A stretch of 64,000 nt of DNA from a virus: positions 128,098 to 192,097 of IMG/VR virus record IMGVR_UViG_3300045974_000166; one strand, written 5' to 3'. Positions 52,316 through 63,805 of this stretch are shown piece after piece. Under the pieces are notes generated by a model. It did no database searches and had not been told where the DNA came from. It was given only the letters and a program-made list of their open reading frames with translations. The position numbers were made by a program, and so were the translations under genes. Position 1 is the stretch's first letter. Every line of letters begins with the position of its first letter.

Positions 52316-52759
52316 ATGAGAAATTATGATCGCGTTAGTAACTGGCTAAAAGTTGCTGGTAAAGAACCATCTGTACAAACTATGTCAGTACAGACTGGTG
52401 TGATGATTGAGGAATTTGTAGAGTTTCTTGAAACAATTTCATTCGGACACGGACCTTTTGAACAGACCCATCTAGATGAAGCAATCGAATCACTCCAAAA
52501 GGTTGCTCACGGACTCAAGAAAGATGGTAAGCTTTTGGACATCAGAAACCGTGTTAACTGTTTAGATGCTCTCTGTGACATTGATGTTACCTTGAACGGT
52601 GTAGCATTCCTGGCTGGTTTTGATAAGAATGGTGCCGATGATGAAGTGTTGGATTCAAACGACTCAAAATTTGTTGATGGCAGAGCAGTCATCCTCCCGG
52701 GTGGAAAAATTGGCAAAGGTCCATACTATGTTGCACCTAATCTGGAGTCATATACATGA
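52316..52759 (+). CDS. MazG-like / PRA-PH NTP pyrophosphohydrolase
   Basis: IEEFVE, LDALCD, VLDSNDSK, GKIGKG. Confidence 0.8.
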   Translation: MRNYDRVSNWLKVAGKEPSVQTMSVQTGVMIEEFVEFLETISFGHGPFEQTHLDEAIESLQKVAHGLKKDGKLLDIRNRVNCLDALCDIDVTLNGVAFLAGFDKNGADDEVLDSNDSKFVDGRAVILPGGKIGKGPYYVAPNLESYT

Positions 52760-53010: not shown

Positions 53011-53225
53011 GCGCACTAGGAAAACATTCGACCGATCAGTCTGCTGAAATTGCTAGACTGCAAAAAGAAGTATCTGAGGCTTACAAGAAAGGTCTAAATG
53101 ATGCCATAGCTATTTGCGAATCTTGTGAGGTCATAGAAAGAGAATCTGGTCAAGTTGGCCTTGGTGAAATGCCATGGGTTATGTATTGTGTGCAGTGTAT
53201 TGAACAGGTCAGGGACTCAGAATGA
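53007..53225 (+). CDS. hypothetical protein
   Basis: ATGA overlap. Confidence 0.65.
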   Translation: MSALGKHSTDQSAEIARLQKEVSEAYKKGLNDAIAICESCEVIERESGQVGLGEMPWVMYCVQCIEQVRDSE

Positions 53226-53509
53226 TTTCAATTCCAACTCCCGTACCAGAACAAAAGTATTCATTCCTATGTACCAAGTGTGGTTCTAACAGATGTATTG
53301 AAGAAGATAAAGCAAAACAACACCCTCGTTGTGGCAATTTGGATTGTGGTTATATGGGTTTTGGATTTCCAAATAACTACACTAAAGAAGATATGGAAGC
53401 TTATGGCAGAGCTGAATATGCCCGTGCTGTAGACGATGCAATTGAAATGGTGTGTTTCCATGGTGGCACAGTTCATTTGGAAGCTCATATCAGAGCACTG
53501 AAAGACTAA
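53222..53509 (+). CDS. hypothetical Zn-finger protein
   Basis: CTKCG...CGNLDC. Confidence 0.65.
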   Translation: MISIPTPVPEQKYSFLCTKCGSNRCIEEDKAKQHPRCGNLDCGYMGFGFPNNYTKEDMEAYGRAEYARAVDDAIEMVCFHGGTVHLEAHIRALKD

Positions 53510-53513
53510 ATAG

Positions 53514-53542
53514 TTTACATGGCTTCATATCCATGTTAAAAT
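53514..53542 (+). promoter_or_regulatory. promoter
   Basis: TTTACA-17-TAAAAT. Confidence 0.7.
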
Positions 53543-53566: not shown

Positions 53567-53878
53567 ATGACAGATTTCATAGTAAAAAGCCCAACCAATC
53601 CCACCCATGTCTTTTTCCATCACTTCGGAAAACGTGGTGTGTACAATGTAGCAACTGGCAAGATCAAAAGCTTTGAAGCCAATGATTCCAACTTCAAAAA
53701 TCCTGCCAAGCTACTGGCAATTTCTGGTATCAATGCTCAACTGCACGTACAGATAAATGGAACGGCAATGACCGTAACGGATATGTACTACACAGACGGT
53801 TCAAGATTCTTTGAGCAAAAAGAGATTGCTAAATACTGTACTGGCTTCAAATGGAAATATGCTAATGAAACAAACTAG
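53567..53878 (+). CDS. hypothetical protein
   Basis: first ORF after promoter. Confidence 0.7.
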   Translation: MTDFIVKSPTNPTHVFFHHFGKRGVYNVATGKIKSFEANDSNFKNPAKLLAISGINAQLHVQINGTAMTVTDMYYTDGSRFFEQKEIAKYCTGFKWKYANETN

Positions 53879-54806
53879 ATATCCACTTTTTATTCTCTCT
53901 AAGGGTCGTTGGGAGTCTCGTATGACTTCTCGTACTCTAGAAGAAATTGGTGTAGACTACCACATCGTGATTGAAGAACAAGAATATGATAAGTATGCAG
54001 CTGTCATTGATCCCAAAAAGATTTTAGTTCTTCCATTTTCTAATCTTGGTCATGGTGGTATCCCGGCCCGGAATTGGATCTGGGAATATTCTATTTCTCA
54101 GGGTCATAAGCGCCATTGGGTGCTAGATGATAATATTCGCTATCTTTACCGGTCAATCCATAATACTAAGCTTCGAGTTAAGTCTACTGTACCATTTCGT
54201 TGTATTGAAGATCTGACCGATCGGTATCAAAATGTTCCTATGTCAGGAATGAACTATCATTTCTTCCAACCAACATTTGTGAAGAAAGAACCTCTGTACA
54301 TTAATACTCGAGTCTATTCTTGTATTCTACTGTCCAATGAAACTGATAAGCGCTGGAGAGTTCTTGACTGGGATGATAGCCCTGCCCCTTATAACGAGGA
54401 CACTGATCTTTCGCTTCAGTTCCTAGAAGATGGAGATTGCACTCTGCTTTCAAACCACTTCTCAATCGGCAAGGCAGATTCTGGTGCAGTCAAGGGTGGA
54501 AATAATTCTGAAGTCTATAAGTATGATGATCCAAATTATGATGCACGTTTTAAGTTTGCCGCATCACTGGCCAAGGCTCATCCGATGTATGTAGAAATTA
54601 CTCAGAAACATAGACGGTATCACCACCAGGTAGACTATTCTAAGTTTCAAAATTTCTCGGTGCTAAAACTAAAACCCGGAGTCGTAGTACCAACTGGTGA
54701 CAATAACTATGGTCTGAAATTAGTGAAACTGGATGATCCAAAGAATATCTGTTCTGCTTACAAGGAAACTGGTGTAGAAAATTACCTGGAGATAGAAAAT
54801 GAGTAA
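53811..54806 (+). CDS. GT-A fold glycosyltransferase, TAGT/GREB1-like (start about 53865)
   Basis: YPLFILSKGR, EEQEYDKY, GGIPARNWIWE, HWVLDDNI, VYSCIL, YNEDTDLSL, GGN. Confidence 0.8.
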   Translation: MSKKRLLNTVLASNGNMLMKQTRYPLFILSKGRWESRMTSRTLEEIGVDYHIVIEEQEYDKYAAVIDPKKILVLPFSNLGHGGIPARNWIWEYSISQGHKRHWVLDDNIRYLYRSIHNTKLRVKSTVPFRCIEDLTDRYQNVPMSGMNYHFFQPTFVKKEPLYINTRVYSCILLSNETDKRWRVLDWDDSPAPYNEDTDLSLQFLEDGDCTLLSNHFSIGKADSGAVKGGNNSEVYKYDDPNYDARFKFAASLAKAHPMYVEITQKHRRYHHQVDYSKFQNFSVLKLKPGVVVPTGDNNYGLKLVKLDDPKNICSAYKETGVENYLEIENE

Positions 54807-55083
54807 GAAGGAAAATCTATTCTCAATGCTCGGAGTTGACACAGATGTTCCAGTCTGGTCTGGTATGCCACATCACGTCCAGAATCAAGCCGAAGCAGAA
54901 TATGTCCTGTGTGTGAATCTTGAAACAAAAGAAGATCTACATGCATTTGCAGATTTGATCGGTCAGCCACAACTCAAGAACGAAGCAAAGACGAATCTGA
55001 AATCTACATGGTTCCCAAGACTTGAACGCGGCGAACGCGGCTCAAATGGAAACTACATTTGGGTTTCCGATGAAGACCTTTAA
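54799..55083 (+). CDS. small glycosyltransferase-associated protein, paralogue 1
   Basis: ETKEDLHAFADLIGQP...STWFP. Confidence 0.75.
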   Translation: MSKKENLFSMLGVDTDVPVWSGMPHHVQNQAEAEYVLCVNLETKEDLHAFADLIGQPQLKNEAKTNLKSTWFPRLERGERGSNGNYIWVSDEDL

Positions 55084-55084
55084 T

Positions 55085-55112
55085 TTTACTTCTCAATCTA
55101 TTTGGTTATAAT
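55085..55112 (+). promoter_or_regulatory. promoter
   Basis: TTTACT-16-TATAAT. Confidence 0.65.
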
Positions 55113-55118
55113 TGAACT

Positions 55119-55355
55119 ATGAATGAACTAGAAGAACTGATGGCTCAAGAGGCCGATGACAATTCCGAACTACCTTTTAAGCTGGTCGACAAACAAGGAC
55201 CAGGATATATCGCAGTGGTTCGTTTCAGAAACAAAGAAGACTACTTTGAATTTGCCGATCTGATCAAGCAACCAAAGCTGAAGGTCTATTCTAAATCGGC
55301 AATGAGAGAAACTACCTGGCCCGTCAAGGAACCAGAAAATTCTCTGTTCGACTAA
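55119..55355 (+). CDS. small glycosyltransferase-associated protein, paralogue 2
   Basis: RNKEDYFEFADLIKQP...TTWP. Confidence 0.75.
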   Translation: MNELEELMAQEADDNSELPFKLVDKQGPGYIAVVRFRNKEDYFEFADLIKQPKLKVYSKSAMRETTWPVKEPENSLFD

Positions 55356-55366
55356 TTAAACTTGGG

Positions 55367-56311
55367 GTGAAAATGAAAAAACGTATTTTAGTTACTGGCG
55401 CAGCAGGATTCTTAGGTTCACATCTTGTGAAATCTCTACTTGATGATGGTCACTCTGTCCTAGGTATGGACAATCTCAGTACAGGTTCAATGAAGAACCT
55501 TGAGCAGTTTGATGGGAATATGAACTTTGGTTTTGCTAACCACGATGTCACCGTACCGTACCATTTTATTGTAGATGAAATCTACAATTTGGCATGTCCT
55601 GCTTCACCACCAGCATATCAAGCTGACCGGTATAAGACTCTTATGACTTCCGTTAAGGGTGTAGAGAATGCTTTGAAGTGCGCTTTCAGTATTGGTAATT
55701 GCAAGGTATTTCATGCTTCAACATCAGAAGTCTATGGTGACCCAATTGTACACCCACAAGTAGAATCATACTGGGGCAATGTGAATACAGTTGGACCTCG
55801 CTCCTGTTATGACGAAGGTAAACGTGTTGCAGAAACTATGCTCACAGACTTCTCAAAGCAATATGGTGTGCCAGTTAAGATTGTTCGTATCTTTAATACC
55901 TATGGACCGAACATGGATCCACAAGATGGCCGAGTTGTGTCTAATTTCATTATGCAGGCTCTGCGTCACGAACCATTTACTATCTATGGCACCGGCCGCC
56001 AGACTCGTTCGTTCTGTTATGTGTCCGATACGATTGCCGGTTTCCGTAAGCTTATGGATACAACTTCAGATTTGTTTATCGAACCAGTCAACATCGGTAA
56101 TCCAAACGAGTTCACACTCATGGAACTTGCCGACATGATAGCTGAGAAGGTTGGAATTAAACCTGTGTTCATGTTCAAGTCCCTACCTGGTGATGATCCC
56201 AAACAGCGTCGTCCTGACATTAGTAAAGCTCAAAGAGTTCTCAACTGGGATCCAAAAGTCATGCTCTCCGAAGGTCTAGATAAGACCATCGAATATTTCA
56301 AGACTAAATAA
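55367..56311 (+). CDS. UDP-glucuronate decarboxylase (UDP-xylose synthase)
   Basis: GAAGFLGSH, LACPASP, STSEVYGDP, GPRSCYDEGKR, RIFNTYGP, DGRVVSNF, DDPKQRRPDI. Confidence 0.93.
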   Translation: MKMKKRILVTGAAGFLGSHLVKSLLDDGHSVLGMDNLSTGSMKNLEQFDGNMNFGFANHDVTVPYHFIVDEIYNLACPASPPAYQADRYKTLMTSVKGVENALKCAFSIGNCKVFHASTSEVYGDPIVHPQVESYWGNVNTVGPRSCYDEGKRVAETMLTDFSKQYGVPVKIVRIFNTYGPNMDPQDGRVVSNFIMQALRHEPFTIYGTGRQTRSFCYVSDTIAGFRKLMDTTSDLFIEPVNIGNPNEFTLMELADMIAEKVGIKPVFMFKSLPGDDPKQRRPDISKAQRVLNWDPKVMLSEGLDKTIEYFKTK

Positions 56312-56336
56312 ACATATCTAAACTACGGAGTATATT

Positions 56337-57167
56337 ATGGGAAAATTGAACATTGGTATTGTTGGTCTTGGCTTTGTCGGTAAAGCGGCAGCACATGGTT
56401 TCCAGAACAACAACTTGTTTCTAGTAGATCCAAACTTGGGTACGGATACTTCTCTACTCAAGAATCAGAAAATGGATGCAGTTTTCATCTGTGTGCCAAC
56501 CCCAATGGGTGCAGATGGATCGGTTGATATTTCTATTGTTGCTAAAGTTCTTTCTGAACTTAGAACTGTAGATACTCTTCTTGTTCTCAAGTCGACTGTG
56601 CCGCCAAATTTAGTTGCATGGTTTGCAGCAGAATATGAAAAGTTTGTTTACAATCCAGAATTCTTGACCGAACGGAATGCACTCTGGGACTTTGAAAATC
56701 CAATCTCCAATGTGTATGGCGGCAAGTTGGAATACACCAAACAGCTCGAGCAGATTTACAAACATCACTCAATTTGTAAGGAAGCAAATACTTTCCATAT
56801 GACTGCAGAGGAAGCAAGTTTTGTCAAATACGGCATGAACACATTCTTGTCAACCAAGATTTCTTTCTGGAATCAGTTCTATGATGAAACGGAAAAGAGC
56901 GGCTGTGATTATAATGCCATCAAACGTGCAATTGGAAATGATCCTCGTATTGGTTCGTCTCACATGGATGTTCCCGGACATGATGGTCGCCGCGGCTTTG
57001 GTGGTGCATGTTTCTACAAAGACTGTGCAGCATTTTTGAAATTCTCTGGTTCAAATGGTATGTCAGTACTTCGCGAAGCATGGAACAAGAATGTTGACTA
57101 TCGTATGTCATACGGAACTCTTCTTGATCGTGAAGTAGAACAACACGTGAACTTGATCAAACTATGA
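56337..57167 (+). CDS. UDP-glucose 6-dehydrogenase-like, short form lacking the C-terminal domain
   Basis: GLGFVG, CVPTP, KSTVPP, NPEFL, EEASFVKY, GFGGACFYKD. Confidence 0.88.
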   Translation: MGKLNIGIVGLGFVGKAAAHGFQNNNLFLVDPNLGTDTSLLKNQKMDAVFICVPTPMGADGSVDISIVAKVLSELRTVDTLLVLKSTVPPNLVAWFAAEYEKFVYNPEFLTERNALWDFENPISNVYGGKLEYTKQLEQIYKHHSICKEANTFHMTAEEASFVKYGMNTFLSTKISFWNQFYDETEKSGCDYNAIKRAIGNDPRIGSSHMDVPGHDGRRGFGGACFYKDCAAFLKFSGSNGMSVLREAWNKNVDYRMSYGTLLDREVEQHVNLIKL

Positions 57168-57342
57168 CCGAAGTTGAACAACTAAGAAAAGAACTCAATG
57201 AACTGCGTGAACGTATAGCAGTTCTTGAACGTCGATCTGCCCCGGCAACTCAGCCACCCCCAAATTGGAGTCCAACTGTGCCGGTATGGCCTAAAGACCC
57301 ACTTGCGCCACCATATACAATTACTTGTAAATCATCTTAAAT

Positions 57343-57371
57343 TTTACAAATCATTCTAATTGGTTTATAAT
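57343..57371 (+). promoter_or_regulatory. early promoter
   Basis: TTTACA-17-TATAAT. Confidence 0.8.
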
Positions 57372-57403: not shown

Positions 57404-58063
57404 ATGAAACTCTCTAAAACGACCCTTGAAGTTCTTCGCAACTTCTCCTCAATCAACCAAAACATCCTGATCAAGGCAGGTAAAACTCTTACGACACGAA
57501 CTGTGGCCAAGAACATCTTTGTGACGGCTGAGGTTGATGATACGTTTGACCAAGAGTTCGGCATCTACAATTTGCCAGAGTTCCTCGGTGTTATTTCCCT
57601 GTTCTCTGACCCAGAGTTCACATTCAATGAAAATTCGGTCACTATTTCTCAGGGTAAGAACAAAGTGCAGTATGTCTTTGCTGCTCCTGAAGTTCTGGAC
57701 TATCCAGATAAGGCCATCAAAATGCCTAAGACCGATGCAGAATTTGAACTTGCCGAGGAAGATCTGAAATCCCTTCTGAAGGCTGGATCTGTTCTTTCGG
57801 CTACCGATTTGCTCATCCAGGGTGACGGCTCTACAATTACTTGCACCGTGTTGGATCCAAAGAATCCAAGTTCAAACACCTTTGCGGTCGAAGTCGGAAC
57901 TACCGACCAGGTATTCTCGTCCTACATCAAGTTGGAAAACCTGAAGATGCCTGCTAGCATCTATACGGTCAGTCTGAGTTCTAAGAAGATTGCCCAATTC
58001 AGTTCCAAAACTATCAGCTACGAATTCTTCGCGGCTTGTGAAAAGAACTCTGCCTGGTCTTAA
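57404..58063 (+). CDS. gp45: sliding clamp gp45
   Basis: MKLSKTTLEVLRNFSSINQNI, FGIYNLPEFL. Confidence 0.95.
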   Translation: MKLSKTTLEVLRNFSSINQNILIKAGKTLTTRTVAKNIFVTAEVDDTFDQEFGIYNLPEFLGVISLFSDPEFTFNENSVTISQGKNKVQYVFAAPEVLDYPDKAIKMPKTDAEFELAEEDLKSLLKAGSVLSATDLLIQGDGSTITCTVLDPKNPSSNTFAVEVGTTDQVFSSYIKLENLKMPASIYTVSLSSKKIAQFSSKTISYEFFAACEKNSAWS

Positions 58064-61318: not shown

Positions 61319-63805
61319 ATGACCATAATTTATACAGCAGTAGAACAAAGATTCAATAAGATTTACTTTCGTGGGTACAAGGATGGCAAGCGTGTTCAGA
61401 CTTCTGATGCACAACATAAACCAACTTTGTATGTGCCAGGACAATCGGTAGATTACAAAACTTTATTTGGTGAAAGTCTAACTGAGATTCAGTTTGGCGA
61501 CATCCGTGAAGCACGAGATTACATCAAAGCATATGCCGATGCCATGAAAATCCACGGCAATGATCGGTATGAATATGATTTCATTCATCGTAACTTCAGA
61601 GGCGAACTCAACGTAGAATTGGCATCGCTGTCTATTCTATATCTTGATATAGAAACGACAACGGGTCAAGGGCCCATTGACACCAAGAATGCTCCAGAGA
61701 CTGTTCTATTGATCACGTGTTATTCCAATAAGCAGGCAAAAATGGTGACGTTTGGCGTCGAACCAAGCAATGCTAAGGGTACTGATTACATTATCTGCCG
61801 TGATGAAAAGGATCTTCTGCTCAAGTGGATCAACTACTGCATCGATGTTGACTTTGATATCATGACTGGATGGAATGTTGTTCAGTTCGACATGGCATAT
61901 CTTGGTTCACGTATTATTAAGTTGCTAGGTCAAAAAGCTCTTGAACGTCTGTCACCATTTGGTCATGTAGATGCTAAGACAGAAACTCTGATGGACCGTG
62001 AGTTCCTTAAGTATGAAATCTCTGGTAGGACTGTGCTTGACATGTTAGATCTGTACAAGAAGTTCCGATTCATTAACCGTCCATCTTATAAACTTGGATA
62101 TATCGGCGAGGTTGAGATTGGTGAAACTAAGACCAAGAACAAATATGCTTCGTTCCGTGAGCACTACGAAAAAGGTTGGAATGACACAGCAGATGGTCCA
62201 GATGGATTTGTTTCGTACAACATCCAGGACGTGAACTTGCTTGTGAAACTTGAGGATAAACTTGGCCTGATCTATCTAGCAGTGACTCTGGCATATCTGA
62301 CTAAGGTCAACTACTCAGATGTGTATTCACCCGTGAAGACTTGGGAGTCTTATATTCTCTCTACTCTGTATGAGGAAAATACTTTCTGTGCAATGAAGAA
62401 AAGTCATTCACCCGATCATCAGATTGTTGGTGGATATGTGAAAGATGTTATTCCTGGGTTGTATAAGTGGACTGGTGTACTAGATGCAACTTCGTTGTAT
62501 CCAAGTTTTATCATGTCACTAAACATGTCGCCCGAAACATTTGTAGATATGATTGATGGAGTTACAATTGATATACTTCTTTATACAAACATTAGTAATG
62601 AATCCGATTATGCTCTTGCTGCTAATGGTTCTCGTTATCGCAGAGATATTAGGGGAGTGATGCCACGGCTGACCGAGTCTATGTTCGGAAAGCGGAAGGC
62701 AGCCAAGGATGAAATGCTTCGGCTGAAACGTGAATATGAACGAACTCATGATGAAAGTTTTAAGAAGGCTTCGGCACGCTTTGGTGTTCTACAATTGGCC
62801 GTTAAGGTTCAATTGAACTCCCTATTTGGAGCCATGGCTAATAAATACTTTCTCTTCTTTGACAATCGGATTGCCGAAGGTATTACTACTACGGGTCAGT
62901 ATGCAATTCAAGCAGTGTCTCGAAGAGCAAATCAGTTCATGTCCAAAGTATGTAAGAAGGAAATGGACTATGTAGTCTATAATGACACCGATTCACTCTG
63001 TGTCTGCTTTGACAATCTCGTGAAACTTGCCCCCAAGAAAATGACAGATGATGCAACGGCTACATTTGTATTGAAATTTATTGATTCTTTCCTTGGTAAA
63101 GAACTGAATAAGTCTACAAAGGAAATTTCAGATCGGCTAAACTTCTATGAAAACAAACTTTACTTCAAACCAGAGGCTATTTCTTCAACTACTGTGGTTC
63201 TCGCCAAAAAGAGAAACTGTCAGAAGGTACTTGATAATGAAGGTGTTAGATATGCAGAACCAGAATACAAGATCACCGGAATCGAAACCAACAGATCTTC
63301 AACTCCTGACTTAGTTCGTGAGTGGCTCACCAAGGCGATTCAGATCATCTTGGATACTACTGACCGTGATACTCTTCTTAAGTATGTAGACGAATGCCAT
63401 AAGAACTTCCATTCATACTCGGTAGAGGAAATTGCCTTCCCTCGTGGCGTAAATAATATGAGAGAATACTCGGACTCAAATGCAATCTATGCCAAGGGTT
63501 GTCCGATTGCTGTGAGAGCGGCTTTGTTATACAACGATCGGATCACTAAGCTTGGTCTGACTAAAAAGTATGAATTGGTTAAAGAGGGTGACAAGATTAA
63601 GTATGTCGCTCTGACGGAACCTAATACTCTACGTGAAAACATTATTGGCTTTCCATCCGAGTTACCAGAAGAGTTCAATCTCCACCGGTACATCGACTAC
63701 GAAACTCAATTCTCTAAGGCATTCCTTGACCCACTAGTCAAGATCATGGATGCTCTGAACTGGAAACTAGAAGAGGAAAACTCCCTCGACGACTTTTTTG
63801 CTTAA
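61319..63805 (+). CDS. gp43: family B DNA polymerase gp43
   Basis: DIET, GWNVVQFD, YNIQDV, DATSLYPS, KVQLNSLFG, YNDTDS. Confidence 0.97.
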   Translation: MTIIYTAVEQRFNKIYFRGYKDGKRVQTSDAQHKPTLYVPGQSVDYKTLFGESLTEIQFGDIREARDYIKAYADAMKIHGNDRYEYDFIHRNFRGELNVELASLSILYLDIETTTGQGPIDTKNAPETVLLITCYSNKQAKMVTFGVEPSNAKGTDYIICRDEKDLLLKWINYCIDVDFDIMTGWNVVQFDMAYLGSRIIKLLGQKALERLSPFGHVDAKTETLMDREFLKYEISGRTVLDMLDLYKKFRFINRPSYKLGYIGEVEIGETKTKNKYASFREHYEKGWNDTADGPDGFVSYNIQDVNLLVKLEDKLGLIYLAVTLAYLTKVNYSDVYSPVKTWESYILSTLYEENTFCAMKKSHSPDHQIVGGYVKDVIPGLYKWTGVLDATSLYPSFIMSLNMSPETFVDMIDGVTIDILLYTNISNESDYALAANGSRYRRDIRGVMPRLTESMFGKRKAAKDEMLRLKREYERTHDESFKKASARFGVLQLAVKVQLNSLFGAMANKYFLFFDNRIAEGITTTGQYAIQAVSRRANQFMSKVCKKEMDYVVYNDTDSLCVCFDNLVKLAPKKMTDDATATFVLKFIDSFLGKELNKSTKEISDRLNFYENKLYFKPEAISSTTVVLAKKRNCQKVLDNEGVRYAEPEYKITGIETNRSSTPDLVREWLTKAIQIILDTTDRDTLLKYVDECHKNFHSYSVEEIAFPRGVNNMREYSDSNAIYAKGCPIAVRAALLYNDRITKLGLTKKYELVKEGDKIKYVALTEPNTLRENIIGFPSELPEEFNLHRYIDYETQFSKAFLDPLVKIMDALNWKLEEENSLDDFFA

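Follow-up and report, generated by a model that had tools for sequence, protein, structure and literature searches.

A glycosyltransferase module with its own UDP-xylose supply beside the replication genes of a divergent T4-like phage: a candidate system for DNA xylosylation

The DNA analysed here, referred to as the window, is the final 64 kb (64,000 nucleotides, positions 128,098 to 192,097) of the 192,097-bp IMG/VR virus record IMGVR_UViG_3300045974_000166, for which CheckV reports a completeness of 100%. Judged by its gp43 DNA polymerase, the source virus is a divergent T4-like phage, because this protein shares 45% identity with its counterpart in Synechococcus phage BUCT-ZZ01 and about 39% with those of marine cyanomyoviruses. 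The whole stretch was present in a single sequencing run, a pond metagenome from which the record probably derives, and no RNA run was among those listed; a DNA-level search of the phage collection returned nothing beyond a short match in one of the genes described below, that for UDP-glucuronate decarboxylase (UDP-xylose synthase, UXS). This gene belongs to a cluster that also encodes a TAGT-family GT-A glycosyltransferase, two small proteins (sp94 and sp78) and a short member of the UDP-glucose dehydrogenase (UGD) family, designated mini-UGD. A first-pass annotation made from the nucleotide letters had described the five genes as contiguous, and all of them lie at the place given there, on the plus strand and tightly packed, with successive spacings of -8, 35, 11 and 25 nt. 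The five genes and the two replication features to which they are compared are as follows.

53859-54806, plus strand: TAGT-family GT-A glycosyltransferase, 315 aa from ATG (PF20691, E 7e-35).
54799-55083, plus strand: sp94, predicted TAGT accessory domain protein, 94 aa, homologous to the extra N-terminal segment of fused TAGTs.
55119-55355, plus strand: sp78, paralog of sp94, 78 aa (paralogy E 3e-11), with the tail ENSLFD at 55335-55352.
55367-56311, plus strand: UXS (353 bits, E 1e-104 against human UXS1).
56337-57167, plus strand: mini-UGD, nucleotide-sugar 6-dehydrogenase family, 276 aa (PF03721 and PF00984; TIGR03026, E 1.5e-38).
57404-58063, plus strand: gp45 sliding clamp (phrog_223, E 1e-69; PF09116, PF02916).
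63776-63802, plus strand: C-terminal tail ENSLDDFFA of gp43 (gene at 61319-63805), taken as the phage's reference peptide for clamp binding.

The TAGT scores 121.2 bits against PF20691, for which the gathering cut-off is 27.5, and covers profile positions 1-205 of 205; phrog_842 is matched as well. The assignment as a TAGT/GREB1-like GT-A glycosyltransferase is thus borne out over the full length of the profile. The TTG codon at 53811, first taken as the start, overlaps the upstream open reading frame (ORF), and homologs of 311-313 aa begin where an ATG occurs at 53859; this codon is the more probable start. A total of 5945 TAGT homologs were found, and in an alignment of 20-30 of them DDN (residues 90-92) and NEDTD (179-183) are invariant, presenting an acidic, DxD-like motif. 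In an AlphaFold2 model of a 39%-identical relative, the glycosyltransferase (GT) domain has a predicted local distance difference test score (pLDDT) above 90 and matches GT-A enzymes at a probability of 1.0. TAGT is the sole glycosyltransferase found genome-wide, where no GT2, GT1/4, alpha-GT or beta-GT was detected; PF11440 and PF09198 had no match in the genome, and the PF11440 control detects the T6 alpha-glucosyltransferase (alpha-GT) with E 1e-260. Related phages vary in the number of transferases. Two full-length sp-TAGT genes stand in tandem in Vibrio phage Kuja (L003:4590-7278) and at loci L069 and L038, and an extra GT4-like gene occurs at L063, L065 and L001; these arrangements suggest that certain phages make di- or oligosaccharides. 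One complete phage of 47 kb (L084, G012:C1:45847-47191) has its TAGT split into three ORFs, through gene decay or a fault in the assembly.

The two small proteins were proposed from the outset to be paralogous partners, and they are indeed related, with 36% identity over 53 aa (E 3e-11). sp94 aligns with the N-terminal extension of approximately 100-135 residues in the TAGTs of Aeromonas phage 65, Vibrio phage Kuja, Tenacibaculum phage PTm1 and Pectobacterium phage POP12, and most TAGTs of cultured phages bear the sp domain as such an extension. When a profile of the domain was run over 97 TAGT loci, it was found adjoining or fused to TAGT in 87, and several of the 10 loci with no sp match end at contig edges or carry a broken TAGT. 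Two sp copies are fused to TAGT at L013, and the TAGT of Paraglaciecola GD virus 1 has a similar extension that the sp profile did not match. The order TAGT-sp-sp-UXS recurs at L001, L004 and L024. The domain has no Pfam family. A model of sp94 (pLDDT 79, short helices only) had no counterpart in the PDB (best Z 2.0) or among viral models, and an Atlas feature search returned viral hypothetical proteins only; in a model of the fused 2xsp-TAGT of L013, the GT domain is confident, the sp part reaches a pLDDT of 30-60, and the packing of sp is not visible. sp is a previously undescribed accessory domain whose pairing with TAGT is obligate, and sp94 is probably a subunit of the transferase. In small phages, a partner of about 200-230 aa, consisting of an N-terminal domain followed by sp, is encoded just upstream of TAGT and terminase. 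The N-terminal domain matches ParB_N in two of the five small-phage examples tested, and between the sp-fused ParB_N and the ParB domain of phage DNA methyltransferases the identity amounts to 38-42%. ParB_N has no match in the genome considered here.

With respect to the sugar donor, UXS aligns with human UXS1 (4gll) over its full length, the next SDR family scoring 136 bits, and the catalytic motifs GAAGFLGS at 11, STSEVYG at 118, YDEGK at 148 and GRVVSNF at 188 are all present, in agreement with its annotation as a UDP-glucuronate decarboxylase. The designation of the last gene of the cluster as a UDP-glucose dehydrogenase holds for the family and the catalytic residues, but not for the complete architecture, the protein having only 276 aa and no UDP-binding domain. 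It keeps the GLGFVG and NPEF motifs, and 120-121 of 121 homologs retain G10, G12, G15, N106, E108, K174, C225, K228 and D229. As the best 120 homologs (P0121-P0240) are 268-299 aa long and these catalytic columns are conserved, mini-UGD is not a truncation accident. A small ORF as the source of the missing C-terminal domain was considered and rejected, since neither sp protein is related to that domain and PF03720 gives no signal anywhere in the genome, its control being positive in 13 of 14 genomes. Thousands of mini-UGD homologs exist, many on phage-sized contigs, with weaker relatives in Pelagibacter phage HTVC008M, Campylobacter CP220-type phages and phage C48C1. In other phages, mini-UGD stands beside UXS or beside an SDR resembling UDP-glucuronate (UDP-GlcA) 4-epimerases (L099; best PDB matches 5u4q, 6zl6 and MoeE5). 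Because both partners consume UDP-GlcA, we infer that mini-UGD still makes this compound. Xylose would be the sugar transferred. The UDP-xylose donor side of the predicted module is well supported. Coupling of this supply to a TAGT-family transferase, as originally claimed, is upheld by the tight cluster and by TAGT being the only glycosyltransferase found in the genome. A protein of 292-316 aa that belongs to no Pfam family (cluster C2; L094:11988-12914 and 27 other loci) lies mostly beside TAGT-sp, SDR or UGD and may be a further enzyme of the module. It has no counterpart in the present genome, nor do the other recurrent neighbours in relatives, namely C21, c77, the GT4-like c60, PMM and a cytidylyltransferase.

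The C-terminal tail of gp43 docks T4-type DNA polymerases on the gp45 sliding clamp; gp43 of T6, for example, ends in ASLDFLFG. In the present phage, gp43 ends in EEENSLDDFFA and sp78 in EPENSLFD, and a scan of the 298 ORFs of the genome found such a tail in these two proteins only. Among 1902 ORFs from related loci, the tail motif occurs in 42, comprising 31 DNA polymerases, all ending in SL(D/E)xFF, five sp78-type proteins, three c77 proteins, two second TAGT paralogs and one Dam-like methyltransferase. Furthermore, many short sp proteins in a library of 1.8 billion proteins end in SLDHFF, SLDEFF, TLDAFFGE, PLLEFF, SLEDLF, PLSEFM or similar peptides. On the basis of these tails, sp78 is probably an adaptor to gp45. 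In several phages, the clamp-type tail is borne by another protein rather than a small sp: at L075 (6666-7622), L076 and L081 by c77, a 318-aa protein of no known family that sits inside the module, and at L077 (9638-10501) and L079 by the second TAGT paralog. A D12-class, Dam-like methyltransferase encoded beside the DNA polymerase of phage C48C1 (OQ984149.1, L017:5178-6062) ends in STLDAFFG, which suggests clamp-tethered methylation in that phage. T4 alpha-GT binds gp45 (PMC13216743).

The surroundings of the five genes include the following features.

52316-52759, plus strand: MazG-like NTP pyrophosphohydrolase (phrog_671, E 3e-23; phrog_2144, E 3e-12).
53514-53542, plus strand: early-type, sigma-70-like promoter TTTACA-17-TAAAAT, with 10 of 12 consensus matches and a TG element, preceding orf103 and TAGT.
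53567-53878, plus strand: orf103, upstream of TAGT and co-transcribed with it, with no Pfam, PHROG or NCBIfam match.
55085-55112, plus strand: early-type promoter-like site TTTACT-16-TATAAT, with 10 of 12 matches, preceding sp78, UXS and mini-UGD.
57164-57340, plus strand: orf58, 58 aa, between mini-UGD and gp45, its start overlapping the mini-UGD stop.
57343-57371, plus strand: promoter-like site TTTACA-17-TATAAT ahead of gp45.

The promoters of the module look early-like, and no T4-type late TATAAATA motif is present at 50-58 kb. The location of sp78, UXS and mini-UGD downstream of one promoter-like site suggests a single early unit. The cluster had been placed directly before gp45, which is indeed the next recognised gene, with the qualification that orf58 intervenes. 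Inspected by eye, orf58 seems to begin with a coiled coil and to end in a Pro-rich stretch, and a homolog occupies the same place at L024. orf103 is kept directly upstream of TAGT at L004, L023 and L025. The nearby NTP pyrophosphohydrolase noted in the first-pass annotation proved to be MazG-like; the MazG cluster adjoins TAGT in 21 loci and in related phages is often directly upstream. A 95-aa protein with four Cys residues in a zinc-ribbon-like arrangement is encoded at 53222-53509, just upstream of the early promoter of the module.

Based on these features, replication-coupled xylosylation of phage DNA is proposed as the function of the module, at about even odds (a probability of roughly 0.5). 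UDP-glucose would be oxidised to UDP-glucuronate by mini-UGD or by a host UGD, and UXS would decarboxylate UDP-glucuronate to UDP-xylose. A two-part transferase, consisting of TAGT as the catalytic subunit and sp94 as the accessory subunit, would then move the pentose. The polymerase-like C-terminal peptide of sp78 would dock this enzyme on the gp45 sliding clamp, so that fresh phage DNA receives its sugar at the fork, in the manner suggested for T4 alpha-GT, with protection against restriction and CRISPR nucleases as the likely benefit. The whole module would be an early-expressed, self-contained DNA glycosylation unit. We infer the binding of sp78 to gp45, DNA as the acceptor and the atom that is glycosylated; DNA as the target is supported by three independent contextual lines, namely the sole activity characterised for the family, the polymerase-like clamp tail and a ParB_N of the methyltransferase type. 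The early-looking promoters, the binding of T4 alpha-GT to gp45 and the UGD in the hypermodification cluster of SP-15 also speak for DNA. As a tentative extension of this proposal, it is possible that TAGT-sp glycosylates a canonical, unmodified base or another universal group of DNA directly at the fork, with no hydroxylated precursor. Acting on a canonical base, TAGT-sp would resemble a Dam-type methyltransferase that moves xylose rather than a methyl group.

Several observations weigh against DNA xylosylation. The complete genome gave no match to PF00303, PF00145, PF13640, PF13759 or PF01702; a thymidylate-synthase-type (PF00303) hydroxymethylase or hydroxylase was not found with a positive control, and neither were C5-methylase, TGT/DpdA, or the 2OG-FeII_Oxy_3 and _5 oxygenases. 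PF12851 (TET/JBP) matched nothing in the genome or its relatives, which is weak evidence of absence because this search had no positive control. Likewise, no thymidylate-synthase-family or other known acceptor-making enzyme was found on 15 related contigs with TAGT, of which three are complete. In two complete small phages, the overlap with the genome is limited to TAGT(+sp), the TAGTs being 51% identical. As for the enzymes themselves, similarity to the T6 TAGT, the sole biochemically characterised member, is remote (E 0.02-0.07 over about 90 residues). Mini-UGD ends about 51 residues past the catalytic Cys and is devoid of the C-terminal domain PF03720, which binds UDP in canonical UGDs. The sp78 tail (SLFD) is shorter than that of the polymerase (SLDDFFA), and GREB1, an animal relative of TAGT, is reported to glycosylate a protein. 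According to a 2010 review, the sp-TAGT carriers Aeh1 and 65 have no gene-42 modification network, genes 42 and 56 being absent, and such genomes are probably without major deoxycytidine modification, a statement that is not specific to Aeh1 and 65 (PMC2993671). In Aeromonas phage 65, only td was found, beside frd.

The modified base that had been assumed as the acceptor, and for which a genome search for dCMP/dUMP hydroxymethylase, hydroxylase and TET/JBP had been advised, is therefore not supported by the genes recognised in this phage or on the 15 related contigs. Because no acceptor-making enzyme was found in any of them, and because unrelated complete phages share TAGT(+sp) only, the module appears to travel between phages with no such enzyme. 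A dCMP deaminase is present in the genome. A 304-aa ThyX-like protein (PF02511, 34.9 bits) is encoded outside the window on the minus strand (G000:C1:31368-32282; L018:1126-2040) and represents the sole thymidylate-synthase-like gene of the genome. It is approximately 50% identical to the copies of about 1000 phages, including those of the Pseudomonas PAK_P3 type, and we know of none among these phages that has a modified pyrimidine. A role of this gene as a hydroxymethylase was rejected as evidence, the protein being of a common phage ThyX type.

An acceptor of the kind known from T-even phages and RB69 would nevertheless be available if a hydroxymethyl- or hydroxy-pyrimidine were made by an enzyme of a family not recognised here. 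This explanation gains from the fact that every characterised phage DNA sugar modification has such an acceptor (PMC13326640, PMC13390438), and MazG, dCMP deaminase, a divergent phage-type ThyX-like gene and many ORFs with no annotation fit with it. Given the failure to detect PF00303, TET or 2OG enzymes in the genome or the 15 relatives, the restriction of the overlap with unrelated complete phages to TAGT(+sp), and the occurrence of the same ThyX type in the PAK_P3 group and many other phages, we regard it as unlikely. It is about equally improbable that the transferase acts on a protein of the replisome, on another clamp-bound protein or on a host protein, with the clamp tail serving for localisation only. 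The activity noted above for GREB1 points in this direction, as do the failure to find a DNA acceptor pathway and the best structural matches of the modelled TAGT relative, which are protein- or polymer-modifying GT-A enzymes such as COLGALT1, LH3 and TarS. However, these matches are generic for the GT-A fold, with 8-15% identity, the clamp tail is common to DNA polymerase and the Dam methyltransferase, and the ParB_N module is of the type used by DNA methyltransferases.

UXS and mini-UGD could also be auxiliary metabolic genes that alter host UDP-sugar pools or surface polysaccharide, with TAGT using another donor or acting on an envelope precursor. Cyanophage-like genomes often contain nucleotide-sugar genes, and C48C1, which is outside the 25 TAGT-matching phage records, carries an SDR and mini-UGD among its replication genes. 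This explanation is nonetheless doubtful, as TAGT-sp lies within 10 kb of UGD and/or SDR in about three dozen loci, often directly adjacent, sp78 shares one promoter-like site with UXS and mini-UGD, and the genome revealed no second glycosyltransferase. A target in RNA, such as phage tRNAs, or in a small molecule is very improbable. Eukaryotes glycosylate queuosine in tRNA, which provides a precedent; double-stranded DNA is the target suggested by the clamp tail as well as by the fusion to ParB_N, though, and small phages that have no tRNA arrays possess the same TAGT-sp pair beside terminase. Replication-coupled xylosylation of DNA remains the preferred reading.

The sugar coating of phage DNA is a major defence against restriction enzymes and CRISPR, and the characterised cases of DNA glycosylation all begin with a specially made hydroxylated pyrimidine. 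The present module is widespread in T4-like and small phages, with 5945 TAGT and thousands of mini-UGD homologs, and is distinguished by bringing along an exchangeable source of sugar nucleotides (for xylose in this phage, and probably for galacturonate or other sugars in different ones), by the undescribed accessory domain sp, and by two alternative putative DNA-targeting devices, the clamp tail or ParB_N. In the literature, no publication was found that describes a TAGT-sp-UXS-UGD module, and no paper was found that ties UXS, mini-UGD, the sp domain or the clamp tail to TAGT. If the module acts on DNA, either new chemistry or a base-hydroxylating enzyme that has yet to be recognised would be involved, and the module would offer a transferable set of enzymes with which to glycosylate DNA. 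It would also account for the "solitary" TAGT genes in 288 of 753 phage genomes, which were noted and left unexplained (PMC13216743). The TAGT of Aeh1 has been listed as "presumably modifies DNA, unknown base" (PMC8056088).

Among known systems, the T2/T6 beta-glucosyl-HMC-alpha-glucosyltransferase is a member of the same family, acting on phage DNA by adding a second glucose to glucosyl-hydroxymethylcytosine (PMC13216743, PMC13390438). The two enzymes share the PF20691 domain, the GT-A fold and the DxD-like motif, and each is encoded in the replication region of its T4-like phage. The T6 enzyme, however, has 279 aa and no sp domain and is encoded beside gene 42, whereas the TAGT described here has sp partners and a linkage to UXS in a genome with no gene 42 and no alpha- or beta-GT. 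T4 alpha-GT is similarly a clamp-associated DNA sugar transferase whose modification accompanies replication (PMC13216743), but it is a GT-B enzyme that uses host UDP-glucose and acts on 5-hydroxymethylcytosine; in the present phage, a distinct adaptor protein would make the clamp contact through its tail.

The first-pass annotation knew of no characterisation of the pentose hypermodification. Pentoses on DNA are in fact known from Thanatos (PMC12838424) and from RB69/DLP3 (PMC13326640), where they are made by other enzymes. The arabinosyl-5-hydroxycytosine of RB69/DLP3 resembles the proposed product as a pentose on DNA with a phage-encoded sugar-nucleotide supply, specified in a plastic region near the polymerase (PMC13326640, PMC6024577). 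That pathway employs a thymidylate-synthase homolog for 5-hydroxy-dCMP, other transferases and an arabinose pathway, and none of these genes occurs here. Shewanella phage Thanatos carries a deoxypentose on cytosine with a link to UDP-xylose (PMC12838424), but uses the UDP-xylose pyrophosphorylase TH1_063, the bifunctional TH1_060 and a thymidylate synthase homolog, and has no UXS, UGD or TAGT-sp. In Bacillus phage SP-15, a phage UGD, which matches the UGD described here, lies in a hypermodification cluster and is thought to supply uronic acid for DNA (PMC5977210), whereas the acceptor there is dihydroxypentyl-uracil, formed via hydroxymethyl-dUMP synthase, and the transferases differ. The same targeting devices as in the TAGT-sp systems are used by the ParB_N-methyltransferase fusions (ParB_N 38-42% identical) and by the Dam-like enzyme of C48C1 (STLDAFFG tail). 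These enzymes modify canonical DNA after replication, their catalytic domain being a methyltransferase instead of a glycosyltransferase.

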